From a candidate division WOR-3 bacterium (GTDB lineage: Bacteria; Hydrothermota; UBA3072; B12-G15), in assembly GCA_965649055.1 (NCBI GenBank), contig CBFGJG010000024.1, positions 1 to 28,797 of the forward strand: a stretch of 28,797 nucleotides of DNA, in the 5' to 3' direction. Shown piece after piece: positions 2-26,719 of the stretch. Position 1 is the first letter of the stretch. Every line of letters begins with the position of its first letter. The translations under genes and the position numbers were made by a program. A model generated the notes under the pieces. It searched no databases and was not told the DNA's origin. It saw only the letters and a program-made list of their open reading frames with translations.

Positions 2-1609
2 TCTTTAACAAAGGACTGGGGTGTATATGATGTTGTTATTCTCTGTTCAGGTGATGACCACTCTCCATTAACAACATCAGGTATACAGCAGAAGATAACA
101 GATTATTACAATGCAGGTGGTAAGTTAATATTTGAAGGTGGAGAATTAGGATATGTATATAGAGGAACAGCTTTCGGGACGAATATACTTCATTTTGGTT
201 CAACATGGCGTGGAGATAATGTTGGTGCATTGACATTACAGAATCCGACACATCCAGTTGCGACGATACCGAATGTATTACCTGCAAGTTTACCGATAAC
301 ATATGGGGAGTATGGAGATAATGATGCTACAGATATTGGAGCAGATGCGACACTGATATACGGGACAACGAACTATCCTACATCAGCAGGAATCCTTGGA
401 TATGATGATACACCACCACCTGAGGCTGGTAAGGTAGTTGTGTTTAATTTCAATCTATCAGCGACAGATACGATAAATATAGGACCTAAGTTGATAGAGA
501 ATGCTGTTCACTGGCTTTTGGCACAGGAGACAGGAGCTGATGGTCTTATATATGGTCATGTTGAATCAAACGGGACACCTAATGATGGTGGTGCGATAGT
601 TCGTGCAACAAGTTCAGGTAAGTATATAGCATATGATACAACAGATGCATCAGGTAATTACTCAATACCTGTATATTCAGGGACATACAGTTTATACTTC
701 TATCGTGAAAATTATTCAGATACTACAGTAACAGGTGTAGTAGTTCCATCAGGTGGTTCTGTGGAGGTTAATGTTAATCTATATCCATTTGTTGTTTTAT
801 GGGAGAGTGATTTTGAGGCGAATAATGGTGGGCTTACAGGAGATGGTTGCTGGCAGTGGGGAGACCCGCAGTATTCAGGGACATATACAGGTTGTTCAGA
901 TGCACATTCAGGTGTGAACTGCTGGGCTACGAATCTTACAGGAGATTATCCTAATTCAACGAATTCAAGGTTAACATTACCTGTTATATCACTCCCATCA
1001 GGTTCGAAGCCGGCGATGGATTACTGGCAGTGGTTAAATACAGAATTTAGGTATGATGGTGGTAATGTAAAGGTATCAACGAATGGTTCAACATACAACA
1101 TAATATATCCATCTTCACCTGAGAAGTATGATACTATTGCTGCAAATACAAATGCAGGTGTTCCGAATGAATGGGTATTCAGTAACAGGTCTTCAAGGAC
1201 ATACTGGCACAATGTGAAGTTTAATCTTACGAGTTATGCGGGACAGAATGTATATCTGAGGTTCCATTTTGGTTCAGATGGTTCTGTTGTAGGGCCTGGA
1301 TGGTATATAGATGATATAAGGATAGGTTATTATGACTACAATGTTGGTATAACAGAGATTCCAAAGGTGTTTGGTGTTGATGTTCAGACTTTACAGGGTA
1401 AGGATATGAATATTTCACTCTCACTTCCTGTGAATTCAGATGTTGAGATAAAGGTGATGGATATAACAGGAAGGGTTATAGAAGAGAGGAGTATGATAAA
1501 GCCAGCTGGAAGATGGGATGAGAACTTCAAGATGAACCATTCAGGTGTATATTTTGTGAAGGTAAGACTTGGTGGAAAGAACTTCACAAAGAAGGTAGTT
1601 ATTTTCTAA
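2..1609 (+). CDS. Large secreted/surface multidomain protein, 5'-truncated by the window edge (carboxypeptidase-regulatory-like beta-sandwich, MAM/immune-inhibitor-A-like domain, T9SS type A-like C-terminal sorting domain)
   Basis: The frame of ORF 230..1609 is open back to base 2 (SLTKDWGVYDVVILCSGD...), so the TTG at 230 is not the start. Contains 'TTDASGNYSIPVYSGTYSLYF', 'WESDFE..NGG...WQWG.P...AHSGVNCWATNL.G.Y...DGGNV...GWYIDDI' and the C-terminus 'IKVMDITGRVI...SGVYFVKV...TKKVVIF'. Confidence 0.8.
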   Translation, partial: SLTKDWGVYDVVILCSGDDHSPLTTSGIQQKITDYYNAGGKLIFEGGELGYVYRGTAFGTNILHFGSTWRGDNVGALTLQNPTHPVATIPNVLPASLPITYGEYGDNDATDIGADATLIYGTTNYPTSAGILGYDDTPPPEAGKVVVFNFNLSATDTINIGPKLIENAVHWLLAQETGADGLIYGHVESNGTPNDGGAIVRATSSGKYIAYDTTDASGNYSIPVYSGTYSLYFYRENYSDTTVTGVVVPSGGSVEVNVNLYPFVVLWESDFEANNGGLTGDGCWQWGDPQYSGTYTGCSDAHSGVNCWATNLTGDYPNSTNSRLTLPVISLPSGSKPAMDYWQWLNTEFRYDGGNVKVSTNGSTYNIIYPSSPEKYDTIAANTNAGVPNEWVFSNRSSRTYWHNVKFNLTSYAGQNVYLRFHFGSDGSVVGPGWYIDDIRIGYYDYNVGITEIPKVFGVDVQTLQGKDMNISLSLPVNSDVEIKVMDITGRVIEERSMIKPAGRWDENFKMNHSGVYFVKVRLGGKNFTKKVVIF

Positions 1610-1712: not shown

Positions 1713-3284
1713 ATGTTTTATATAATTCTTTTATTTTTAGGGTTAAACGATAAGAAAAATGTAAGAATATTTATAAACGAACATAATGATGTATATAAAA
1801 TACACAATCTTGGTGTTTCAATTGAACATCTTACTGATAATTTTATAGAAACACATATAGATGATAGTATGATAAAAAAATTAAAAGATAAAGGATTCAT
1901 TGTTGAAGAGATAGAAGAGAAAAAAGATTATGATTTTACAGGCTATCATAATTACGAACAGATGGTCGCAAAGATTGATTCTATTGTTAATGAATATCCT
2001 GAACTCGCAAAGAAAATAATCGTTGGTTATACACAGCAAGGAAGAACAATATATGCTTTGAAGATATCTGATAATGTGAATCTGATTGAAAATGAACCAA
2101 GGGTTAGATTCATTGGGATTATTCATGGTGATGAACCAATTGGATGTGAATTAACATTATACTTGGCAGATACTCTAACAAGAGGATATAACAATGAACC
2201 ATATATTACAAATTTAGTGAATAACAGGGAAATCTATCTTATACCCATGTTCAATGTTGACGGAAGAGAGAATTCAAGTAGGTATTATGCGAACTGGATT
2301 GACCCAAACAGAAATTTCCCAGATCCTGATGGTTCAATAGGTGATGATGGAACTTACACAAATTATATTGAGACTCAATCAATGATAGACTGGTCTGATA
2401 CAATGAATTTTGTCTTATCTGTAACTTATCATGGCGGTGCAAAGATAGTTAACTACGATTGGGATTATACATCTGAATACCCACCTTTTTATCAACTCAT
2501 AAGAAAGATAGCAATAGGTTATGCTATAAGGAATGATACTATTTTTCTCTCACCTTCGCCATCTTATATTGCTGATAGTGGAACTGTTCGCGGATACTTA
2601 TGGTATGAAGTGGACGGTTCATTACAGGATTGGTCCTATCACTGGACAGGCTGTATAGATTTAACGGTTGAGTTAAATAGTAATAAATGGCCCAATGCCT
2701 CAAAACTTCCAGTGATATGGGAATGCAATAGAAATTCAATGTTGTGGATTATAGAACAGGCAGGTAAAGGTTTATCTGGTATAGTAAAAGATAGTATCAC
2801 AGGTATTCCTATCCAGGCAGAATACCAGATAGATGGGGTAAACAAAGTATTTAAAACAGGTCTGAATGGTGATTTTACAAGGCCACTTCTTAATGGTAAT
2901 TATACAATAACATTTACAAAAGAAAATTACAATACAAAGACTATCTCAGGTATACCTGTTTCATTTGATACCACTACATATATAGAAGTCCTTCTTTCAC
3001 CAATAACAGGTGTTATTGAAGATACTACAAAGGTTAGTCTTATTATAAGAAATCCTTTTAGAAAAGATTTTTCTTTTATTTATTTTATACCTGAAAGTGG
3101 ATACTATGATTTAACCATTTTTGATGTGAATGGAAAGAATATAAAAACTTTATTTGAGAATAAATTTCTCATCAAAGGTCTATACACAAATAATAAAATT
3201 GAAGATTTAAAAACAGGTATATACTTTATTAATCTAAGTTCAAACAAAGAAAAAGTCTTAAAAAAGATTGTATATCTGAAGTAA
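1713..3284 (+). CDS. M14 zinc carboxypeptidase (CPD/N-E-like) with beta-sandwich domain and T9SS-like C-terminal domain
   Basis: HGDE zinc motif, D.NRNFP, TYHGG, GSLQDWSY, catalytic E in 'TVELNSNKWP'. Short hydrophobic N-terminus. C-terminal 'IFDVNGK...LKTGIYFINL...KKIVYLK'. Confidence 0.9.
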   Translation: MFYIILLFLGLNDKKNVRIFINEHNDVYKIHNLGVSIEHLTDNFIETHIDDSMIKKLKDKGFIVEEIEEKKDYDFTGYHNYEQMVAKIDSIVNEYPELAKKIIVGYTQQGRTIYALKISDNVNLIENEPRVRFIGIIHGDEPIGCELTLYLADTLTRGYNNEPYITNLVNNREIYLIPMFNVDGRENSSRYYANWIDPNRNFPDPDGSIGDDGTYTNYIETQSMIDWSDTMNFVLSVTYHGGAKIVNYDWDYTSEYPPFYQLIRKIAIGYAIRNDTIFLSPSPSYIADSGTVRGYLWYEVDGSLQDWSYHWTGCIDLTVELNSNKWPNASKLPVIWECNRNSMLWIIEQAGKGLSGIVKDSITGIPIQAEYQIDGVNKVFKTGLNGDFTRPLLNGNYTITFTKENYNTKTISGIPVSFDTTTYIEVLLSPITGVIEDTTKVSLIIRNPFRKDFSFIYFIPESGYYDLTIFDVNGKNIKTLFENKFLIKGLYTNNKIEDLKTGIYFINLSSNKEKVLKKIVYLK

Positions 3285-3285
3285 A

Positions 3286-4119
3286 ATGTTTATGCCTTTC
3301 ATGATGTTAATAACAACAATGGTTTTAACATTTATTCCTTACGAATCAATTCCTAAAATTTCAAGTATTGTTGGTTTTTTATGGTATAAGATAACAAGAA
3401 GAAAAGAGATTGTAAGGAAAAATATAATGATGGTGAATAATCTTACAGATGAAGAAATGGTTAAAAGAACATTTATAAATTTTATCCAGATCTATCTTAC
3501 TATCCTTAAATTACCAAATATGAAAAAAAATGAATTTATAAAAATTTTCCCTGATAACATTAAAGAAAAACACCTTAAAGAGATTGAAAAGAACAGAGGT
3601 GCAATACTTGTTGGTGCACATCTTGGTGCCTGGGAGCTTGCAGGACCTCTGCTTGCTGCATTGGGATATAAAATAATATCTGTTGCTGAGTCAAAAGGTC
3701 CTGGTGAAAAATTTTTTAGATTTTATTTAAGATATAGAGAGATGTTTGGAGCAAGGATATTAAGGCTTGAAGAAAAGGATATAACAGAAAGAATATTTAA
3801 TTATTTTAAAAAAGGATATCTAATAGGTCTTATCTCAGACAGGGATATATCCAAGACTGGAAGAATTGTAAATTTCCTTGGTGGGAAAATAAGTCTACCA
3901 GCTGGCCCTGCAATAATTTCATACAGATTAAAATCCAAAATACTGATTGGTTTTATTGTTATTGAAAAAAATGCTTTCAGAATTTTAACATACCCTGTTA
4001 TTCAAACTGAGAATATGAAGATTGACGAGATCTTTGTAAAAATTAAGGATTGCATCGAAGATGCAGTTAGAAGATATCCTGATAACTGGTTTGTTTTTGA
4101 AGACATATGGAGGGAATAA
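3286..4119 (+). CDS. Lipid acyltransferase, LpxL/PatA (phosphatidylinositol mannoside acyltransferase) family
   Basis: 'GAILVGAHLGAWELAG' (HxxxxE), 'LISDRDISKTGRIVNFLG...LPAGPA', 'RYPDNWFVFEDIW'. Confidence 0.8.
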   Translation: MFMPFMMLITTMVLTFIPYESIPKISSIVGFLWYKITRRKEIVRKNIMMVNNLTDEEMVKRTFINFIQIYLTILKLPNMKKNEFIKIFPDNIKEKHLKEIEKNRGAILVGAHLGAWELAGPLLAALGYKIISVAESKGPGEKFFRFYLRYREMFGARILRLEEKDITERIFNYFKKGYLIGLISDRDISKTGRIVNFLGGKISLPAGPAIISYRLKSKILIGFIVIEKNAFRILTYPVIQTENMKIDEIFVKIKDCIEDAVRRYPDNWFVFEDIWRE

Positions 4120-5210
4120 TGAAAATACTGTTTGTTTCTGATTTATACTATCCACATCTTGGAGGTGTTTCTGAACACATATACCATCTTGCAAATGAAT
4201 TTGAAAATATGGGGCATTATGTAAGAATATTAACTGGAAAAATGGAAGGAAATTTTAGACCTGATGAAGAAAGGGTTATAAGGATTGGCGTTGGTAAAAG
4301 GGTTAAATACAATAAATCTGTAGGAAGGGTAACAATTGGATTAGATCTATTAAAAATAAAAAAAATTATGAAGGATTTTGACGTTATTCATTCTCACGGA
4401 GGCCTTTCACCAGCATTGCCAATTCTTGCATTATGCTTTTCTGAAAAGACAAATTTTCTCACATTTCACGCAACATTTGAAAAATGCCTTCCTTATAGGA
4501 TTTTTAATAGACCTTTTAAGTTTCTATTCAACAGGATAGATGGCAGGATTGCAGTTTCTCAAACTGCAATGGAAAGTTTCGCAAGATATTTCCCTGGTGA
4601 TTACAAGATAATACCAAACGGAATAGATACAAACAGGTTTTATCCTATGAAAAACAAAAAGGAGAATACAATACTTTTTGTTGGAAGGATTGAGAAAAGA
4701 AAGGGTTTGGAATATTTATTAGAAGCAATAAGACTTTTAAGGAAAGATATAAAAGATATTAAACTTTTAATTGCAGGTGAAAGATATGCAGATTATAAGA
4801 TTGAAATACCAGAAGAAATAAAAGATAATATAGTTTTTTTAGGATTTGTAAAACCCGATAGACTACCTGAAATTTACAGTTCTGCAAATGTATTTGTATC
4901 ACCTGCGATTGGAAATGAAAGTTTCGGAATCGTTCTTCTTGAAGCAATGGCCTCAGGAACACCCGTGATTGCATCTGATATACCTGGATATAAATGCGTG
5001 ATAGAAGATGGAATAGATGGAATATTATTTCCCGGAAAAGATGCAGTAGCACTTAAAGATAAATTAAAAGAAGTTTTAACTAATAAAGAATTACAAAAAT
5101 CTCTTATAAGGAACGGTTTGATGAAAGCAAAAAAATATGACTGGAAAAACATAGCAAGAGAAATAATCAATTTTTACTATGAAATCAATCCTGAACTACC
5201 ACGATATTGA
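4119..5210 (+). CDS. GT4 family glycosyltransferase, PimA/PIG-A-like
   Basis: 'VSDLYYPHLGGVSEHIYHL', 'YNKSVGR', 'RIAVS', 'IIPNGID', 'FVGRIEKRKG', 'ESFGIVLLEAMASG' (EX7E). Start placed at ATG 4119 (TAATG coupling with the upstream stop, GGAGG at 4109-4113) rather than 4107. Confidence 0.88.
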   Translation: MKILFVSDLYYPHLGGVSEHIYHLANEFENMGHYVRILTGKMEGNFRPDEERVIRIGVGKRVKYNKSVGRVTIGLDLLKIKKIMKDFDVIHSHGGLSPALPILALCFSEKTNFLTFHATFEKCLPYRIFNRPFKFLFNRIDGRIAVSQTAMESFARYFPGDYKIIPNGIDTNRFYPMKNKKENTILFVGRIEKRKGLEYLLEAIRLLRKDIKDIKLLIAGERYADYKIEIPEEIKDNIVFLGFVKPDRLPEIYSSANVFVSPAIGNESFGIVLLEAMASGTPVIASDIPGYKCVIEDGIDGILFPGKDAVALKDKLKEVLTNKELQKSLIRNGLMKAKKYDWKNIAREIINFYYEINPELPRY

Positions 5211-5919
5211 TAGAAGTTTCTCACCTTTTTTTTCCACAATACCACCTGAGATATTTAAAAAACACTTATCTTTTTTTAAGAAATATTCTATCGAGATAAT
5301 AGATTTTGAACATTATTTCAAGAAAGATAAAGGTGTTGTGATAACATTTGATGATGGATTCAGAAATCTTTATTACTATCTGCCTGAACTGATTAAAGAA
5401 TTTAAATTCAGACCAATAGTTTTCGTTGTAACAGGATTTTTAGGTGAGAAAAGCAACTGGGATATATGGATAAATAGAGGCGAACATTTAAGTATTAAAG
5501 AGATAAAATACCTAAATAGCTTAGGCGTTATTTTCGGTTCTCACACACATAATCATTATCTTTTGACTGCTCTTGATAAAAAAGATTTAAGATATGAACT
5601 TGATTATTCTAAAAAAATTATTGAAGATTTAACAGGTGAAGAGGTAAAATATCTATCATACCCTTTTGGTAAATATAATGAATATGTTATTGAAACAGCA
5701 AAAGAAACCGGTTATTCAAATGCATTTGTCTCAACACCATTAAGATTCAAGGAAGGTGACTTCAATATAGGTAGATGGAGTGTTTATCTTATTGATAATC
5801 TTTTCACCATAAAATTAAAGAATGACAATAATGGTTTTCTATCAGAAATTGAAAAAATTAAATGCAAGATGATAAATAAATTTTCATTCCTGACATATTA
5901 TGCAAATACTATTTTTTAA
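5179..5919 (+). CDS. Polysaccharide deacetylase (CE4/NodB-like)
   Basis: 'ILNYH', 'ITFDDG', 'GSHTHNH', 'SYPFG' motifs. No evident signal peptide. Confidence 0.88.
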   Translation: MKSILNYHDIDRSFSPFFSTIPPEIFKKHLSFFKKYSIEIIDFEHYFKKDKGVVITFDDGFRNLYYYLPELIKEFKFRPIVFVVTGFLGEKSNWDIWINRGEHLSIKEIKYLNSLGVIFGSHTHNHYLLTALDKKDLRYELDYSKKIIEDLTGEEVKYLSYPFGKYNEYVIETAKETGYSNAFVSTPLRFKEGDFNIGRWSVYLIDNLFTIKLKNDNNGFLSEIEKIKCKMINKFSFLTYYANTIF

Positions 5920-16516: not shown

Positions 16517-17038
16517 TTTTTCTCCCTTCTTAAGAAGTTTTTTTTCAATTTCTCTTTTCCCCTGTGAATATAATTTTTTTACATCTTATAGATTCACTCC
16601 CATAACATTCGCTATCTCATTGTAATCCATATCCTCAAAATAATGAAGAGTTATTGCAACCCTTTGATTTTCTGGAAGTTTTTCAATTTCTTTCTTTAAT
16701 ATTCTCTCTTTTTCCTTAGCATCAATATCATTAATAAGATCTTCTTCTACCTTTATATCTTCCGGAATTTCTATAAACTCTATTTTTTCTTTTCTTTTGA
16801 ATTCAAGAGCGCTATTATATGCTATACTATAAACCCATGTTGATAATTTACTCTCTCCTTTAAAATAATCTATTTTCTGCCATATCTTATTCATAACAAT
16901 CATTGTAACATCCTCTGAATAATGATGATCATTTAAAACCCTGTAAACAATAGTATATATCCTGTTTATATAAATCATAAAAAATTTTTCAAATTCATTT
17001 ATATCCTTTCTCTTTAGTTTTTCAATATCTATTTCCAT
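16495..17038 (-). pseudogene. ECF (sigma70 group 4) sigma factor disrupted in region 4.2
   Basis: Region 2 'SEDVT...FKGESKLSTWVYSIAYN' and region 4 'LPENQRVAITLHYFEDMDYNEIANVMGVNL'. A TAA at 16588-16586 follows, and the expected continuation 'VKNYIHRGKEKLKK' lies in a shifted frame after an A7 run (16580-16574). Confidence 0.75.
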
Positions 17039-20456: not shown

Positions 20457-21713
20457 TTGAGAAGATGTTTAATAATTATGTTGTGTATATTTCTTTCTTT
20501 AAATCTTTTAGCTATTGGATTTGATGAATTGGATATAAATGGAGAGATGAGGACTCGTGCATTTTATCTTTATAATTATAAAGCAAACGGTATAAAAGAC
20601 ATTTACTTTATTAATCGCTCACTGATAAAACTATCTTTTAGTCCTGTTGAAGAAACAGAAATAGGGATTCTCTTTGGTTATACAAGATATTTTGGCAAGA
20701 ATAAATGGTATTATCAACAAGCAGAACCTGGACCTTTTGAAAATCTATCAGGAATATTTAATGAAATAGGGTTATATAATGCATATTTTAAAATTCCTCT
20801 ACCTCTCAATGGAAAAGCAACTATTGGGAGACAATTTCTTGGAGATAGGGATGATGCCTTTTTTTTCTATGGACCACAAAGGGGAAGATTCCTTGAAGTT
20901 ACATCTTTGGATGCAATAAAGATTGAATATTTGGTATCCAACTTCAACACTTATTTTGCAGTCGGTAAGAAGAACGAATATAATCTTGATACCCTTTCTA
21001 AAGATATAGACATTGTTGCAATTGGTGTAAAAAATGAAGCCTTACTTAAAAATAACGAGATCTCCCTAAACATGTATTCAAGGATTAAAGAATTTAATGA
21101 CAAACTTTACTTACCTGTAGTAAGGGTTAAAGGTAATTTTATTGAAAAATTAGGGCATGATATAATGTTTGGAATAAACTTTGGTAGTAAAGATACTATA
21201 AATTATACTGGATGGTTGGGAAGGGCAATTTTTAACTTTAAATTTTCCACATTTAAGTTTACAGGTGGATATGTTTATGTCTCTGGAGACACAAATACTG
21301 TTGATGGTAACGATGGTAATTTTAGAAGGATAAGCAGGGATTGTTTTTATAATATGGCTATTTTAACTTATGAATTATTGAATGATGTCCATCCTGAAAA
21401 TGTAACGAATGTAACAATACCATTTGGTGGAATTGATTATTCTCAAGAGATATTAGGCGGAAACTTAAAGTTTACATTAATCGGATGCTATCTGCAGTTT
21501 GCTGTCCCATCAGTGATAGCAGGAACACTTTGTAAAGATAAGGGTAAAGAAGTAAATTTCAGAATAGAATATCAATTCAAAGAGAATCTGACACTTGAAT
21601 TGATTTTAGCAAGATTTATACCTGGTGATCAATTCAAAGCAGCTTTTGGTTCTTCACCTACCTTTGATAAACCATATGACCAAGCTACATTTGATTTTAC
21701 TTTGAATTTCTAA
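20457..21713 (+). CDS. Outer-membrane beta-barrel protein, alginate-export-like porin
   Basis: Signal peptide. 'INGEMRTR', 'IGRQFL...SLDAIK', 'YVSGD', 'GKEVNFRIEYQFKENL...FIPGD'. Amphipathic last strand ending in Phe ('FDFTLNF'). Confidence 0.7.
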   Translation: MRRCLIIMLCIFLSLNLLAIGFDELDINGEMRTRAFYLYNYKANGIKDIYFINRSLIKLSFSPVEETEIGILFGYTRYFGKNKWYYQQAEPGPFENLSGIFNEIGLYNAYFKIPLPLNGKATIGRQFLGDRDDAFFFYGPQRGRFLEVTSLDAIKIEYLVSNFNTYFAVGKKNEYNLDTLSKDIDIVAIGVKNEALLKNNEISLNMYSRIKEFNDKLYLPVVRVKGNFIEKLGHDIMFGINFGSKDTINYTGWLGRAIFNFKFSTFKFTGGYVYVSGDTNTVDGNDGNFRRISRDCFYNMAILTYELLNDVHPENVTNVTIPFGGIDYSQEILGGNLKFTLIGCYLQFAVPSVIAGTLCKDKGKEVNFRIEYQFKENLTLELILARFIPGDQFKAAFGSSPTFDKPYDQATFDFTLNF

Positions 21714-22746: not shown

Positions 22747-23178
22747 TTATCTTCCGGTTGAGCCAAATCCATTTGAATTCCTTTTAGTGCTTTTAAGTTT
22801 TTTTACTTCTTTAATTTTTACATCATAAACTTTATTTATAACCATCTGTGCAATTCTATCGCCTTTCTTTATCCTGTATCTTTTTTTTGAGAAATTGAAA
22901 AGAATAACATATATCTCACCTCTATAATCTGAATCTATCGTTCCCGGAGAATTTAAGATACCAATCCCGTTCTTAGCAGCAAGCCCACTCCTTGGTCTTA
23001 TCTGTGCTTCATATCCTCTCTTTAGTTCAATAGCTATCCCGGTTGGAATTGGTTTATATTCAAAAGGTTTCAAAACATAATCAATTGACGAGAAAATATC
23101 AAATCCCGAACTCCCGGTTGACCCTTTTTTTGGTAATGGAAGGTCCTTATCAATCCTTAAGACCTTTAAACTTTTCAT
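22747..23178 (-). CDS. dut: dUTP diphosphatase (trimeric dUTPase)
   Basis: 'SGFDI', 'RPRSGLA', 'PGTIDSDYRGE', 'GDRIAQ', 'R..NGFGSTG'. Start set at ATG 23178 after GAGG. Confidence 0.95.
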   Translation of the reverse strand: MKSLKVLRIDKDLPLPKKGSTGSSGFDIFSSIDYVLKPFEYKPIPTGIAIELKRGYEAQIRPRSGLAAKNGIGILNSPGTIDSDYRGEIYVILFNFSKKRYRIKKGDRIAQMVINKVYDVKIKEVKKLKSTKRNSNGFGSTGR

Positions 23179-24355
23179 ATTCCTCAAGACCAGCTTTAAG
23201 AATCCTTATTGCATCCCTAAGGTCATTTTCATTCAAAACGTATGCTATCCTTGCCTCATCCAGGCCTTTATTCGGTGTAGAATAAAACCCGCTTGCAGGT
23301 GCAAGCATTGTTGTCTTACCATCAACATTGAAATCTGTTAACATCCATTTAATAAATTCTTCTGCATCCTTAACCGGCAATTTGACAATATTATAGAATG
23401 CACCTTCAGGCTTTAAATAAAACAAACCTTTTATTTTCTTCAATTCCTCGCATACAATATTTCTTCTTTTCTCATATTCTTTCACAATATCTTCCATAAA
23501 ATTATCAATTTTTTTGAAACCTTCAGCAGCAGCATACTGTTCAAATGTAGGCGGGCATAATCTTGCCTGACCAAATTTAAGAATTGTGCACCACAAATCC
23601 CTATTTTTTGTAACAATAAAACCTATCCTTGCACCACAGGCACTGAATCTTTTTGATATACTATCAACAACAATAACCCTTTCCTGTGCCTCCTTAAATT
23701 GAAGAACCGATGTATGTTTTTTTCTGTCAAATGTAAATTCCCTGTAAACCTCATCTGCAATAACGTATAAGTCATATTCAAGTGCTATATCAACAATGCT
23801 CTTTATTTCATTGTAAGAATAAACTGTTCCTGTAGGGTTATTGGGTGAACATAAAAGGATTGCTTTAGTTTTTGGATTAATATAATGTTTTATTACACCC
23901 GGTTCCTTTATATGGAAATTATCCTCAACATTCAATGTAATAGGAACAAGTTTAACACCGGCCATTTTGGCAAAACCATTATAATTTGTATAAAAAGGCT
24001 CAGGGACAATAATTTCATCCCCATAATCACAAATGCTAAGTATTGCAAAAAGTATTGCTTCACTTCCACCTGTTGTTATAAAAATATTATCTGGTGAAAC
24101 ATCAATTTGATATTTCTTAAAATAATCTGATATTGCGTTTCTTAAAAAAGGTAGTCCTTCAGATGGACCATAAGGAAGAACCTTTTCCTTGAAGTTTTTG
24201 TATCCCTGGAATACTTCAGGTGGTGTTGGTATATCAGGGTCACCAATATTTAAATGGTAAACCTTGATTCCCCTTTCTTTTGCCTTATTTGAATATGGTG
24301 CTAACCTTCTTATTGGCGATGCGGGCATATCAATTCCTCTCTGGGAAATTTTCAT
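23150..24355 (-). CDS. PLP-dependent class I/II aminotransferase (aspartate aminotransferase-like)
   Basis: 'LNIGDPD', 'TTGGSEA', 'SPNNPTG', 'DEVY', PLP lysine in 'SISKRFSACGARIG', C-terminal 'RIAY'. Confidence 0.93.
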   Translation of the reverse strand: MKISQRGIDMPASPIRRLAPYSNKAKERGIKVYHLNIGDPDIPTPPEVFQGYKNFKEKVLPYGPSEGLPFLRNAISDYFKKYQIDVSPDNIFITTGGSEAILFAILSICDYGDEIIVPEPFYTNYNGFAKMAGVKLVPITLNVEDNFHIKEPGVIKHYINPKTKAILLCSPNNPTGTVYSYNEIKSIVDIALEYDLYVIADEVYREFTFDRKKHTSVLQFKEAQERVIVVDSISKRFSACGARIGFIVTKNRDLWCTILKFGQARLCPPTFEQYAAAEGFKKIDNFMEDIVKEYEKRRNIVCEELKKIKGLFYLKPEGAFYNIVKLPVKDAEEFIKWMLTDFNVDGKTTMLAPASGFYSTPNKGLDEARIAYVLNENDLRDAIRILKAGLEEYEKFKGLKD

Positions 24356-25491
24356 TGGACCTCCTTTAAATAGTTTTCTAAACCTAATTTAAGAATTCGA
24401 ATACCTTCTTCCATCTCTGCCTTTTCTAAATTTGAAAAGTTTATCACAAGAAGTTCTTTACCTTTCTCTTTTTCTACAAAGAAATCCGACATTGGCATAG
24501 CAAATGCAGATGAACCATTCTCTTCAAATGAGTTTATCATATAATCTATGAAACTATCAGAGTCACCTGTTGGAATTTTCAATATCATACAAGGTCCGGC
24601 AAAAGGTTTAATAACAGAGATGTCTTTTGAAAGAACTGCTTTGTATATATAGTCTGAATTATCAAATATTTTCTTTCTCAGATTCCCAATCCCGGATATA
24701 AATCTTGAAAGAAATAAATTCCCTGCATTTATCAATTGACTGCTCACAGGATACAATTCATCCCTATATCTTCTTAAGATTTCATATATTTCAGGGTTTG
24801 TTATTACAAAAACAATGTTTTCATCTGAATAAACCTCAATCAATCTATTGATAATAAAAATATTCTGGTGGCCTTTTACAAGCTCAAAAGCTGAACGAAA
24901 AAAAACATTTTCAAATACACTGAAAGAAAATGTTTCATCCAAAATCACCGGTATTCTATATGTATTTGAAAGGAATATTACCCTTTCCATTTCTTCTTCA
25001 GAGTATACATTCCCAGAAAAAAACTGCGGATTGGAAATAAAAAAAAGTTTTACCCTTGGTGTAATCAATGGCTCTATAAAATCCCTTGATGGTATTGAAA
25101 AATTATTATAGTAATATGTCTTAATAACCTTCAATCTAACCTGTGAGATTGCCGAACTTATACTTAAATAATGTAAAATAGGTTCAGGGAGCAATACTTC
25201 ATCGTTTGTATCAAGAAAGGTAAAGAAAATAGTTGATAATGCCGGTATTGTTCCGGGGAAGGCTAAAACCCGGTAACTTTTAGGTATTTTATAAAAATTT
25301 GCAAATTTTTCAGTTAACCCTTCTTCAGTTGTTTCTGTTCTTTCTCCAAGAAGCGAAATATAGGGATTTAACTTAAATAAATTGTAAATTCTTTTTCCTT
25401 TTTTGGTTTTTTCTTCAATTATCCTGTAATAATATCTGAATGAAGGAAAATCAAAAATATTTGCCCTTTTTGAGATTTTACCATTTGACAT
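24352..25491 (-). CDS. Degenerate class I/II aminotransferase homolog lacking the PLP lysine (probable pseudoenzyme)
   Basis: Colinear with the downstream aminotransferase from end to end ('KISKR' vs 'KISQR'; 'GIRILKLGLENY' vs 'AIRILKAGLEEY'), but catalytic motifs are substituted. Confidence 0.75.
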   Translation of the reverse strand: MSNGKISKRANIFDFPSFRYYYRIIEEKTKKGKRIYNLFKLNPYISLLGERTETTEEGLTEKFANFYKIPKSYRVLAFPGTIPALSTIFFTFLDTNDEVLLPEPILHYLSISSAISQVRLKVIKTYYYNNFSIPSRDFIEPLITPRVKLFFISNPQFFSGNVYSEEEMERVIFLSNTYRIPVILDETFSFSVFENVFFRSAFELVKGHQNIFIINRLIEVYSDENIVFVITNPEIYEILRRYRDELYPVSSQLINAGNLFLSRFISGIGNLRKKIFDNSDYIYKAVLSKDISVIKPFAGPCMILKIPTGDSDSFIDYMINSFEENGSSAFAMPMSDFFVEKEKGKELLVINFSNLEKAEMEEGIRILKLGLENYLKEVQ

Positions 25492-26719
25492 TTCTAACTT
25501 TCCCCAACGTTGTAATTGTTAAATCATCAGGATTAAAAAGATATTTATACAGTTCCATAAGGTCATCCAGTTTTACTCTGTTTAATTTTTCGATAAGTTC
25601 ATCAATATCCATTATACTCTCATTATGGAAATATTCCCTTTGATAGAATCCGGCCCTTCTTCCACAATTTTCAAAATCGATCTTAAATCCTTTTGCAATC
25701 CTCGTTTTTGCCTTACTCAACATATCTTCATCAACACTAAACTCAACAAGTATTTTTCTCATCAATTTTACCAGTGTATTAATATTTCTTTCATCTGTCG
25801 CAAGAAAAATCCCTATTTCTCCGGTGTTCTGGAATTGATTTGAATATGTGAATACACTATATACAAGCGGATTCTCTTCCCTTAATTTCAGAAAAAGATA
25901 AGAGCTCATACCATAACCAAGTATTGACATTAAAATAAGTAAAGAATACCTTCTCTCATCATTATATGGAAATCCAATATTTGACGCAGCAAGATAAACC
26001 TGTTCAAGGGCATTTTTGTAAATACATTTGACTTTCTTTTTGTCCCTCTGAATAAAAGTATCCTTATTTACCGTCAATTTTCCCTTCTCGGAAAATGGTA
26101 TCCTGGATAATTCATTTAACAAATCATCAAGACTACAATTACCAACGCAAGTTACAATTATATTTTCCGGAAAATAGAAATTTTCCCAATACTTAATAAC
26201 ATCTTTCAACGAAATTGAATTCACACTTTTTATTGTTCCTTCGATTGGTAATGCAAATGGACTCCCTTTACCGAAAAGCCTCTCTGAATGATACTTCATA
26301 AGCAGGTTTTCCGGAGAATCAAAATAACTTTTTACTTCCTGAATTATAACCTTTTTTTCTTTTTCAAAATCTTCTTCACGAAATGCAGGATTAAAGATTA
26401 AGTCAGTTAAAAGGTCTATACCGGTTGCAAAATCTTCAGAAAGAAGATGTGTATAAAAACAGGTATATTCAGAAGTGGTGAATGCATCAAGACTACCACC
26501 TTTTAATTCGATCTCTTCAGAGATTTCCTTATAAGATCTTTTCTTTGTCCCTTTGAATAGAAGATGTTCAATTAAATGTGATATACCATTATTATTCTGA
26601 TTTTCGTTGATAGAACCCGTTTTTACAAGAAATGATATATCTATAGTTGAAACCTTTTTATCTTCTTCAAAAATCAATATAGAACCACAAGGTAGTTTCT
26701 CTATTTTAACTTTATTCAT
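25478..26719 (-). CDS. M16 (pitrilysin/insulinase) zinc peptidase
   Basis: Inverted zinc motif 'GISHLIEHLLFKGT', 'AFTTSEYT', 'EKKVIIQE', 'GMSSYLFLKLREE..LVYSV'. Confidence 0.92.
   Translation of the reverse strand: MNKVKIEKLPCGSILIFEEDKKVSTIDISFLVKTGSINENQNNNGISHLIEHLLFKGTKKRSYKEISEEIELKGGSLDAFTTSEYTCFYTHLLSEDFATGIDLLTDLIFNPAFREEDFEKEKKVIIQEVKSYFDSPENLLMKYHSERLFGKGSPFALPIEGTIKSVNSISLKDVIKYWENFYFPENIIVTCVGNCSLDDLLNELSRIPFSEKGKLTVNKDTFIQRDKKKVKCIYKNALEQVYLAASNIGFPYNDERRYSLLILMSILGYGMSSYLFLKLREENPLVYSVFTYSNQFQNTGEIGIFLATDERNINTLVKLMRKILVEFSVDEDMLSKAKTRIAKGFKIDFENCGRRAGFYQREYFHNESIMDIDELIEKLNRVKLDDLMELYKYLFNPDDLTITTLGKVRNVKW

Follow-up and report, generated by a model that had tools for sequence, protein, structure and literature searches.

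Genes of the locus and their families

The window studied here is a whole contig of 28,797 nucleotides (CBFGJG010000024.1, contig C24) from the 2.08-Mb assembly GCA_965649055.1 (completeness 93.8%, GC content 31.6%) of a candidate division WOR-3 bacterium. Three forward-strand genes of this window, at positions 3286-5919, encode an acyltransferase, a family 4 glycosyltransferase (GT4) and a family 4 carbohydrate esterase (CE4) of the de-N-acetylase type, hereafter the triad (Table 1). A sequence-only reading had presented them as coupled or overlapping genes of a diderm bacterium, possibly making a glycolipid akin to phosphatidylinositol mannosides (PIM) or glycosylphosphatidylinositol (GPI). 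The open reading frames and Pfam families agree with the first point: the acyltransferase stop and the GT4 start share 1 nt, the GT4 and CE4 genes overlap by 32 nt, and the motifs quoted for the three proteins are found in the translations. The ORF finder also proposed an upstream GT4 start at 4107, giving a protein of 367 aa. A diderm host is reasonable, because the genome encodes the lipid A enzymes LpxC, LpxB and KdtA.

By sequence and modelled structure, the GT4 belongs to the PimA family, in agreement with the PimA-like segments noticed earlier. Its best PDB match is PimA (E = 3.8e-46; runner-up 1e-19), and a profile of 32 WOR-3 orthologues scored 304 bits with PimA and 150 bits with the next GT4. 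The AlphaFold model (predicted local distance difference test, pLDDT, 93) gave PimA as top Foldseek match, with a template modelling (TM) score of 0.84. An IQ-TREE phylogeny of 52 sequences (13 of the 32 WOR-3 orthologues, 19 of 113 representatives, two actinobacterial PimA, 10 of 21 PIG-A and eight other GT4) placed the WOR-3 proteins, the representatives and actinobacterial PimA in one clade (support 100/99), with PIG-A outside. A FastTree phylogeny of 183 rows agreed, its deep supports not being relied on. The deepest branches of the PimA clade were WOR-3 rows, but the representatives had been picked with the WOR-3 profile.

PimA numbering was transferred by way of the Tsukamurella protein, whose alignment with the solved enzyme is gap-free. 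The window GT4 retains all seven PimA residues N63, H118, R196, E199, R201, K202 and E274, described as essential in PMC9202250; among the 32 WOR-3 proteins they were found in 31, 32, 32, 29, 30, 31 and 31, respectively. The segment E274-I278 is retained in 29-32 of these 32. PimA residues Y9, Q18, E95, D253 and K256 are not retained across WOR-3 proteins: Y9 counted 0/32 among the five commonest residues, E95 1/32 and K256 3/32, and D253 was outside the five commonest. With L9, S18, P246 and L249 at the positions of Y9, Q18, D253 and K256, the window protein departs at these markers from PimA sensu stricto (EC 2.4.1.345). Position 18 is a weak marker, because Nonomuraea PimA has K there; the loss of Y9, E95 and D253/K256 means that the substrate site has changed relative to PimA. 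Residues Y62 and R68, which contact phosphatidylinositol (PI) in PimA, vary across WOR-3 (R in 14/32). Many WOR-3 genomes have one or two further PimA-like paralogues, and this genome carries a single PimA-like protein. The second paralogue subfamily (L244-L252, L263) differs around the H118 segment; two such paralogues may differ in the sugar that they add or in the inositol position, O2 or O6, at which they act.

The N-terminus of the GT4 had also been likened to that of eukaryotic PIG-A, and one rival reading is a GPI pathway of common descent with that of eukaryotes, with a bacterial PIG-A. In the alignment, inspected by eye, this N-terminal likeness is visible and segments 113-121 and 263-276 are PimA-like; kinship with PIG-A did not survive closer comparison. 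Scored with a profile of 21 PIG-A sequences (intact proteins of at least 430 aa from metagenome genes, among the matches listed, 80 of 118 loci), the WOR-3 GT4s (median 135, maximum 162) were above the two actinobacterial PimA (95-98), but a haloarchaeal GT4 of unrelated context reached 138, so that the WOR-3 scores may reflect retained ancestral GT4 character. The Pfam PIG-A family PF08288 gave no match in the window GT4 and matched 2 of the 32 orthologues (best E 0.033). The tree separated the groups, and an approximately unbiased (AU) test run under LG+G4, without mixture model or archaeal PIG-A-like rows, rejected a grouping of WOR-3 with PIG-A (p = 0.010). PIG-A, which is defined by twelve motifs (PMC2446393), was not found on viral contigs, and PIG-L (PF02585) was not found in this 93.8% complete genome, as the earlier proposal of a CE4 enzyme in its place had supposed. 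Homology with the eukaryotic GPI pathway, already disfavoured, thus has very little to recommend it, and 'GPI-like' would mean chemical convergence.

The acyltransferase is, by sequence, of the PatA type and not of the LpxL type, as its motifs had indicated. It matched PatA in the PDB with an E-value of 3.6e-15, compared with 5.3e-5 for LpxL, and the best of nine NCBIfam models was the PIM acyltransferase model NF005919 (106 bits, under the cut-off of 209). In a tree of 31 sequences, 22 WOR-3 acyltransferases and three actinobacterial PatA formed a clade (99/98) separate from six LpxL-type references, two of which pass an NCBIfam cut-off. Residues H112, E117, E135, R151 and D185 correspond to PatA H126, D131, E149, R164 and E200. 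The catalytic His H126 and the acceptor residues E149 and R164 of PatA, as described in PMC4792965, are therefore retained, while E200 is Asp and H284 is lost, being replaced by F269. The acidic-Arg-Asp motif at 185-187 is present as in PatA and is lacking in the six LpxL-type references.

The genome has a second full-length PF03279 protein, encoded on contig C21, which also falls in the PatA clade, so that no LpxL-clade gene was found in the genome; it may be the secondary lipid A acyltransferase or serve in some other glycolipid pathway. Since the lipid A genes are present, this leaves alive an alternative in which the triad acyltransferase is the secondary lipid A acyltransferase and the CE4 de-N-acetylates a lipopolysaccharide (LPS) sugar, the GT4 alone acting on PI or on an LPS intermediate. 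The overlap of acyltransferase and CE4 genes in relative G047, with no GT4 between them, would suit it. It is nevertheless quite improbable: the PatA acceptor residues and the 185-187 motif are retained, the gene stands coupled to that of a PimA orthologue, like the patA-pimA pairs of Nonomuraea and Tsukamurella, and the C21 paralogue is free for lipid A. LpxL grouping in a genome with lipid A but no inositol-lipid genes, named earlier as fatal to an inositol glycolipid, is not what was found: the lipid A genes are there, together with PatA-clade proteins, ino1 and a phosphatidylinositol phosphate (PIP) synthase.

The active site of the CE4 is intact, and its sequence and model indicate a cytoplasmic protein. 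It has the Asp-Asp and His-x3-His metal site and the N-terminal catalytic His of the permuted PgaB/IcaB type, and H8, D58, D59, H122 and H126 are invariant in 20/20 orthologues. Its model (pLDDT 92) matched PplD, PgaB and IcaB best in Foldseek (TM 0.73-0.77). In agreement with the earlier description of a de-N-acetylase lacking a signal peptide, the protein begins right at the first catalytic strand, with no hydrophobic leader. The C-terminal helix (220-245) is moderately amphipathic, in the 79th-100th percentile of stretches across all 20 orthologues, and 3/20 orthologues have an N-terminal hydrophobic membrane anchor. These features fit a substrate at the inner membrane face, without naming that substrate. 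Among 77 longer CE4 relatives, no fusion to a PimA-family GT4 was found; the four of them scanned were doubled or joined to other GT4 types. CE4-bearing multi-GT4 proteins exist, which may or may not belong to the PimA family.

Table 1. Coordinates of the triad and of other features mentioned in the text (positions without a contig label refer to the window)
Feature	Position	Strand	Remarks
PatA-clade acyltransferase	3286-4119	+	277 aa; PF03279
PimA-family GT4 glycosyltransferase	4119-5210	+	363 aa; PF00534/PF13439
CE4 de-N-acetylase, predicted cytoplasmic	5179-5919	+	246 aa; PF01522; PgaB/IcaB/PplD fold type, C-terminal helix
Secreted protein with C-terminal T9SS-type sorting domain	2-1609	+	PF18962
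Secreted M14 peptidase with C-terminal T9SS-type sorting domain	1713-3284	+	PF18962
ECF sigma-like ORF	16586-17038	-	150 aa
Protein with leader and C-terminal Phe	20457-21713	+	418 aa; no Pfam match
dut, two aminotransferases, M16 peptidase	22747-26719	-	
Second PatA-clade acyltransferase	C21:2210-3109 (L009)		Full-length PF03279; coupled to GT2 gene, after pcm and surE
PIP synthase gene, part on C28	C28:1-424	-	PF01066
PIP synthase gene, part on C50	C50:1-189	+	Directly upstream of ino1
Run with second PimA-like paralogue in a relative	G188:C80:1301-5496 (L263)	-	
MFS gene directly after GT4 in relatives	L052, L053, L055, L059-L064, L067, L069, L071, L072, L076-L078, L083, L089		

Inositol lipid genes and conservation of the triad in WOR-3

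The search for ino1 and a PIP synthase, recommended by the sequence-only reading, detected both, and the two genes are adjacent in this genome. The sole match of the genome to PF01066 (CDP-alcohol transferase) runs off the end of contig C28, and scores best with models of PIP synthases from archaea and bacteria. The gene is split between two contigs: C50 starts with the matching membrane-protein tail, the stop of which overlaps the ino1 start, and the C28 and C50 ends have 13 nt in common, a kind of join that occurs four times among the 28,560 ordered pairs of contig ends. By hand count, at least 53 of 101 WOR-3 genomes have a PF01066 gene some 1 kb upstream of ino1. Several relatives have additional PF01066 matches.

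No other phospholipid route was detected. A tblastx search of this genome with two pgsA-like genes of WOR-3 detected no phosphatidylglycerol (PG) synthase; a phylum scan with TIGR00560 was too strict (true pgsA-like genes gave E-values of 1e-16 to 1e-27) and was not used as a test of absence. Psd is encoded in one of 26 genomes of the class, and not in this one. The three phospholipase D (PLD)-family proteins are short and single-domain, and by size are not cardiolipin or phosphatidylserine (PS) synthases. Because about 6% of the genome is missing, the PG and phosphatidylethanolamine (PE) routes are reported as not found rather than absent. With the PIP synthase as sole CDP-alcohol phosphatidyltransferase of the genome, and no gene detected for the synthesis of PG, PS or PE, the chief phospholipid may be PI.

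The sources of close GT4 relatives give their organisms as candidate division WOR-3, Hydrothermales and TA06, and on this basis the phylum compared here is treated as WOR-3. Conservation was followed in a phylum set of 201 genomes in 40 families, loci being read in 1-5 genomes of each family and in more of f2; the families are kin, so that family counts are not independent events. At the thresholds used, ino1 was present in 198/201 genomes, GT4 in 191, CE4 in 149 and the acyltransferase in 148, this last number coming from a single query that missed divergent copies. Around the 30 best GT4 loci, a set biased to close kin, the acyltransferase lay within 1.5 kb in 29 and CE4 in 26, which argues that the arrangement is not due to chance. 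All three genes stand in one run in 10/40 families, a recurrence that accords with the earlier reading. CE4 is in a run with GT4 in 14/40 families and with the acyltransferase alone in two more.

In many relatives a major facilitator superfamily (MFS) protein of 390-480 aa is encoded directly after GT4 (13 of the 29 families read; loci in Table 1). The 17 such proteins scanned were all MFS_1 members with a weak LplT likeness, and the protein is a candidate glycolipid flippase. Its gene seems largely confined to families with a pgsA-like gene, and blastp with four queries did not find it in this genome. At L263 of relative G188, one run contains two PatA-like acyltransferases, dut, a CDP-alcohol transferase and the second PimA-like paralogue, and protein P0251 is a fusion of a PimA-like GT4, of the non-actinobacterial type, with a PIP synthase. 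Other PimA-like GT4s are fused to a GT28 of the monogalactosyldiacylglycerol (MGDG) synthase type (P0150) and to a phosphodiesterase domain (P0268).

Two observations concern the genes around the triad. A UbiA-family prenyltransferase gene, of no clear subfamily, adjoins CE4 in seven families, including where GT4 is elsewhere (L051, L054, L082, L249, L262, L324, L332, L334, L340). The dut, aminotransferase and M16 peptidase genes, which in relatives precede the triad, are found in the window on the opposite strand and 17 kb away, a placement due to local rearrangement.

Proposed product and donor sugar

The PimA-family GT4, the PatA-group acyltransferase, the location of ino1 beside the PIP synthase gene and the phylum-wide occurrence of ino1 and GT4 make an acylated glycosyl-PI likely, and we consider it probable that the GT4 and the acyltransferase glycosylate and acylate PI. 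We propose the following steps, drawn from sequence and from analogy with characterised enzymes. Ino1 and the PIP synthase, the genes of which are observed elsewhere in the genome, would make PI(P). The GT4 would place one sugar on the inositol of PI, at O2 if it acts as PimA does. The PatA-clade enzyme would transfer a fatty acid from acyl-CoA or acyl-acyl carrier protein (acyl-ACP) to C6 of the sugar. If the sugar is N-acetylglucosamine (GlcNAc), the CE4 would remove the acetyl group and leave a zwitterionic acyl-glucosaminyl-PI (acyl-GlcN-PI), as gene linkage and precedent suggest. The MFS protein of relatives could flip the lipid, and acyl-GlcN-PI could serve as neutral partner of anionic PI where PE/PG synthesis is not detected.

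GlcNAc followed by de-N-acetylation is the first choice because the genes are coupled, the CE4 is cytoplasmic and the substrate site is remodelled, because a lineage with no PE route detected would presumably need a neutral lipid, and because of the chemistry demonstrated for the GpgSDF and HexSDF systems (see below). Mannose comes close behind, since GDP-mannose synthesis is nearly universal. All four steps together, a pathway on the cytoplasmic face leading to acyl-GlcN-PI, are accordingly put forward as a tentative reading. Still more tentatively, the membrane of the class might be built on PI alone, with acyl-GlcN-PI as zwitterionic lipid made by a PimA-family GlcNAc transferase, CE4 and a PatA-type acyltransferase; this lipid would have the chemical core of the GPI anchor, with enzymes unrelated to PIG-L and PIG-W. 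The PimA family would then have changed donor sugar between WOR-3 and Actinobacteria.

Several findings weigh against acyl-GlcN-PI. A ManC-type GDP-mannose pyrophosphorylase domain is encoded in 96/101 WOR-3 genomes including this one (PF01050 is absent here), and an argument for GlcNAc from missing GDP-mannose synthesis therefore failed. No residue examined tells the donor sugar. The loss of D253 and K256 was discarded as proof of a UDP donor, since neither residue is present in PimB', a GDP-mannose enzyme, or in most non-actinobacterial PimA-like proteins. The acyltransferase retains PatA R164, which was modelled on mannose O2. The GT4 retains the sugar-binding loop 274-277, itself rejected as proof of mannose because the GlcNAc transferase BshA has it too. 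Lipid A genes coexist with the lack of an LpxL-clade protein in this genome. The linkage of CE4 is also incomplete: it lies elsewhere in 14/40 families (in two of them on short contigs), is weak in three and was not found in seven. Moreover, the triad block belongs to a superoperon with the unrelated genes pnp, M16 peptidase, aminotransferases and dut, in which dut separates acyltransferase from GT4 in four families and UbiA follows CE4 in three, so that the linkage may be inherited gene order. In a profile search, CE4 persisted without a full-length PimA-like GT4 in seven genomes (four of family f33, G047, G124 and G127; 80-98% complete), taken from 10 picked for lack or near lack of GT4; in G047 it overlaps the acyltransferase gene directly. 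Nor do PIG-L-family genes, present in 65/201 phylum genomes, replace CE4 at the locus, as none of 12 loci read adjoined a PimA-like GT4. As a substitute in families lacking CE4, PIG-L was rejected, its distribution being patchy (f21 6/6, f30 4/5, f12 3/4, f7 7/19, f23 0/3). The automatic source label 'phosphatidylinositol alpha-mannosyltransferase' on relatives was given no weight concerning the donor.

Much of this evidence would suit plain chemistry of the mycobacterial type, with PIM1 formed by the GT4 from GDP-mannose and PI and then converted to Ac-PIM1 by the acyltransferase. The adjacent CE4 would have a separate substrate, such as a lipid-linked O-antigen, LPS core or wall precursor. 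No other characterised enzyme comes nearly as close as PimA, loop 274-278 and PatA E149/R164 are retained, GDP-mannose is available, and GT4 and CE4 each occur without the other, GT4 in the seven families where CE4 was not found and CE4 in the seven genomes above. The nearest fused CE4 relatives, many in Fusobacterium, carry other GT2/GT4 domains. We nevertheless regard PIM1 as somewhat less likely than acyl-GlcN-PI: CE4 overlaps or follows GT4 or the acyltransferase in 16/40 families, through several rearrangements, and the acceptor-side Y9/E95 and the guanine pocket of PimA are remodelled. A nucleotide pocket unlike that of PimA, together with variation at the PI-contacting Y62 and R68, might instead indicate another neutral hexose (glucose or galactose) or another acceptor such as diacylglycerol, the product being an acylated glycolipid without amino sugar. 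This has little probability, because N63, R201 and the PI-binding loop are retained, a family member (P0251) is fused to a PIP synthase, and PI is the only lipid derived from CDP-diacylglycerol for which a synthase was found.

The nearest known counterpart is the actinobacterial pgsA1-patA-pimA operon, which performs the first steps to acylated PIM. GT4 and acyltransferase are orthologous to its products, with the same order and coupling, and the genome has PIP synthase and ino1. In WOR-3, however, the PIP synthase gene sits with ino1 outside the triad operon; CE4, often with the MFS gene, follows where actinobacteria have a Nudix gene; PimA Y9, E95, D253 and K256 and PatA H284 are lacking; and the host is a diderm with lipid A genes.

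Precedents for the deacetylation step are two bacterial systems. GpgSDF of Pseudomonas aeruginosa uses a GT4, a deacetylase and a flippase to make glucosaminyl-PG (PMC12713373). It shares with WOR-3 a cytoplasmic GT4, a deacetylase and, for many relatives, a flippase (in WOR-3 a candidate), as well as an amino-sugar phospholipid as product (in WOR-3 proposed); it differs in that its acceptor is PG, no acyltransferase takes part, GpgD is COG3233 and GpgF UPF0104, whereas WOR-3 has a PgaB-type CE4 and MFS. The window GT4 scored 67 bits on the GpgS model (cut-off 480). HexSDF of Clostridioides difficile makes an amino-hexosyl glycolipid (PMC10128005), and was shown to require a polysaccharide-deacetylase-type enzyme to de-N-acetylate the glycolipid of the neighbouring transferase; unlike the GT4, HexS is of the MGDG-synthase type, its acceptor is a glycosyl-diradylglycerol and its flippase is MprF-like.

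Initiation of eukaryotic GPI synthesis (PIG-A, PIG-L, PIG-W) would follow the same order of chemistry on PI if acyl-GlcN-PI holds, namely GlcNAc transfer, de-N-acetylation and acylation. Orthology was found at none of the steps tested, the WOR-3 proteins being a PimA-family GT4, a CE4 and not an LmbE/PIG-L enzyme, and a PatA-type acyltransferase. The WOR-3 enzyme would also place its acyl chain on the sugar, in contrast to the inositol acylation of GPI, and the GPI sugar is linked at inositol O6, compared with O2 for PimA. By analogy, the triad would work like the pgsA-patA-pimA operon plus a deacetylase module like gpgD or hexD, and not as a PIG-A/PIG-L system.

Bacterial inositol lipids are described as rare, mainly actinobacterial and spirochaetal and lately also known from Bacteroidetes (PMC9246714). 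WOR-3 would add a whole uncultured diderm phylum in which ino1, PIP synthase and PimA/PatA orthologues are near-core genes. Together with the lack of any PE/PG route seen in this genome, these near-core genes predict that WOR-3 has an unusual membrane and offers a lipid biomarker. A full-text search, which left most subscription journals outside its coverage and in which matches were mostly judged by title-level entry, found no literature on WOR-3 inositol lipids or bacterial GlcN-PI. If the sugar is glucosamine, the lipid would be a bacterial GlcN-PI, a convergent GPI core, and its enzymes would be soluble, single-chain catalysts for making GlcN-PI.

Other genes of the window

Upstream of the triad are two genes for secreted proteins with a C-terminal sorting domain of the type IX secretion system (T9SS) type. 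The second encodes an M14 peptidase and ends 1 nt 5' of the triad, and the transcript may be common. A promoter and terminator scan gave 23 sites against 27 expected, and found no terminator. On the 3' side, topA is convergent with the triad and overlaps it by 11 nt. The 418-aa protein encoded at some distance on the same strand resembles an outer-membrane beta-barrel. The extracytoplasmic function (ECF) sigma-like ORF apparently stops early in region 4, and is followed by a gene for a 103-aa membrane protein without Pfam match.

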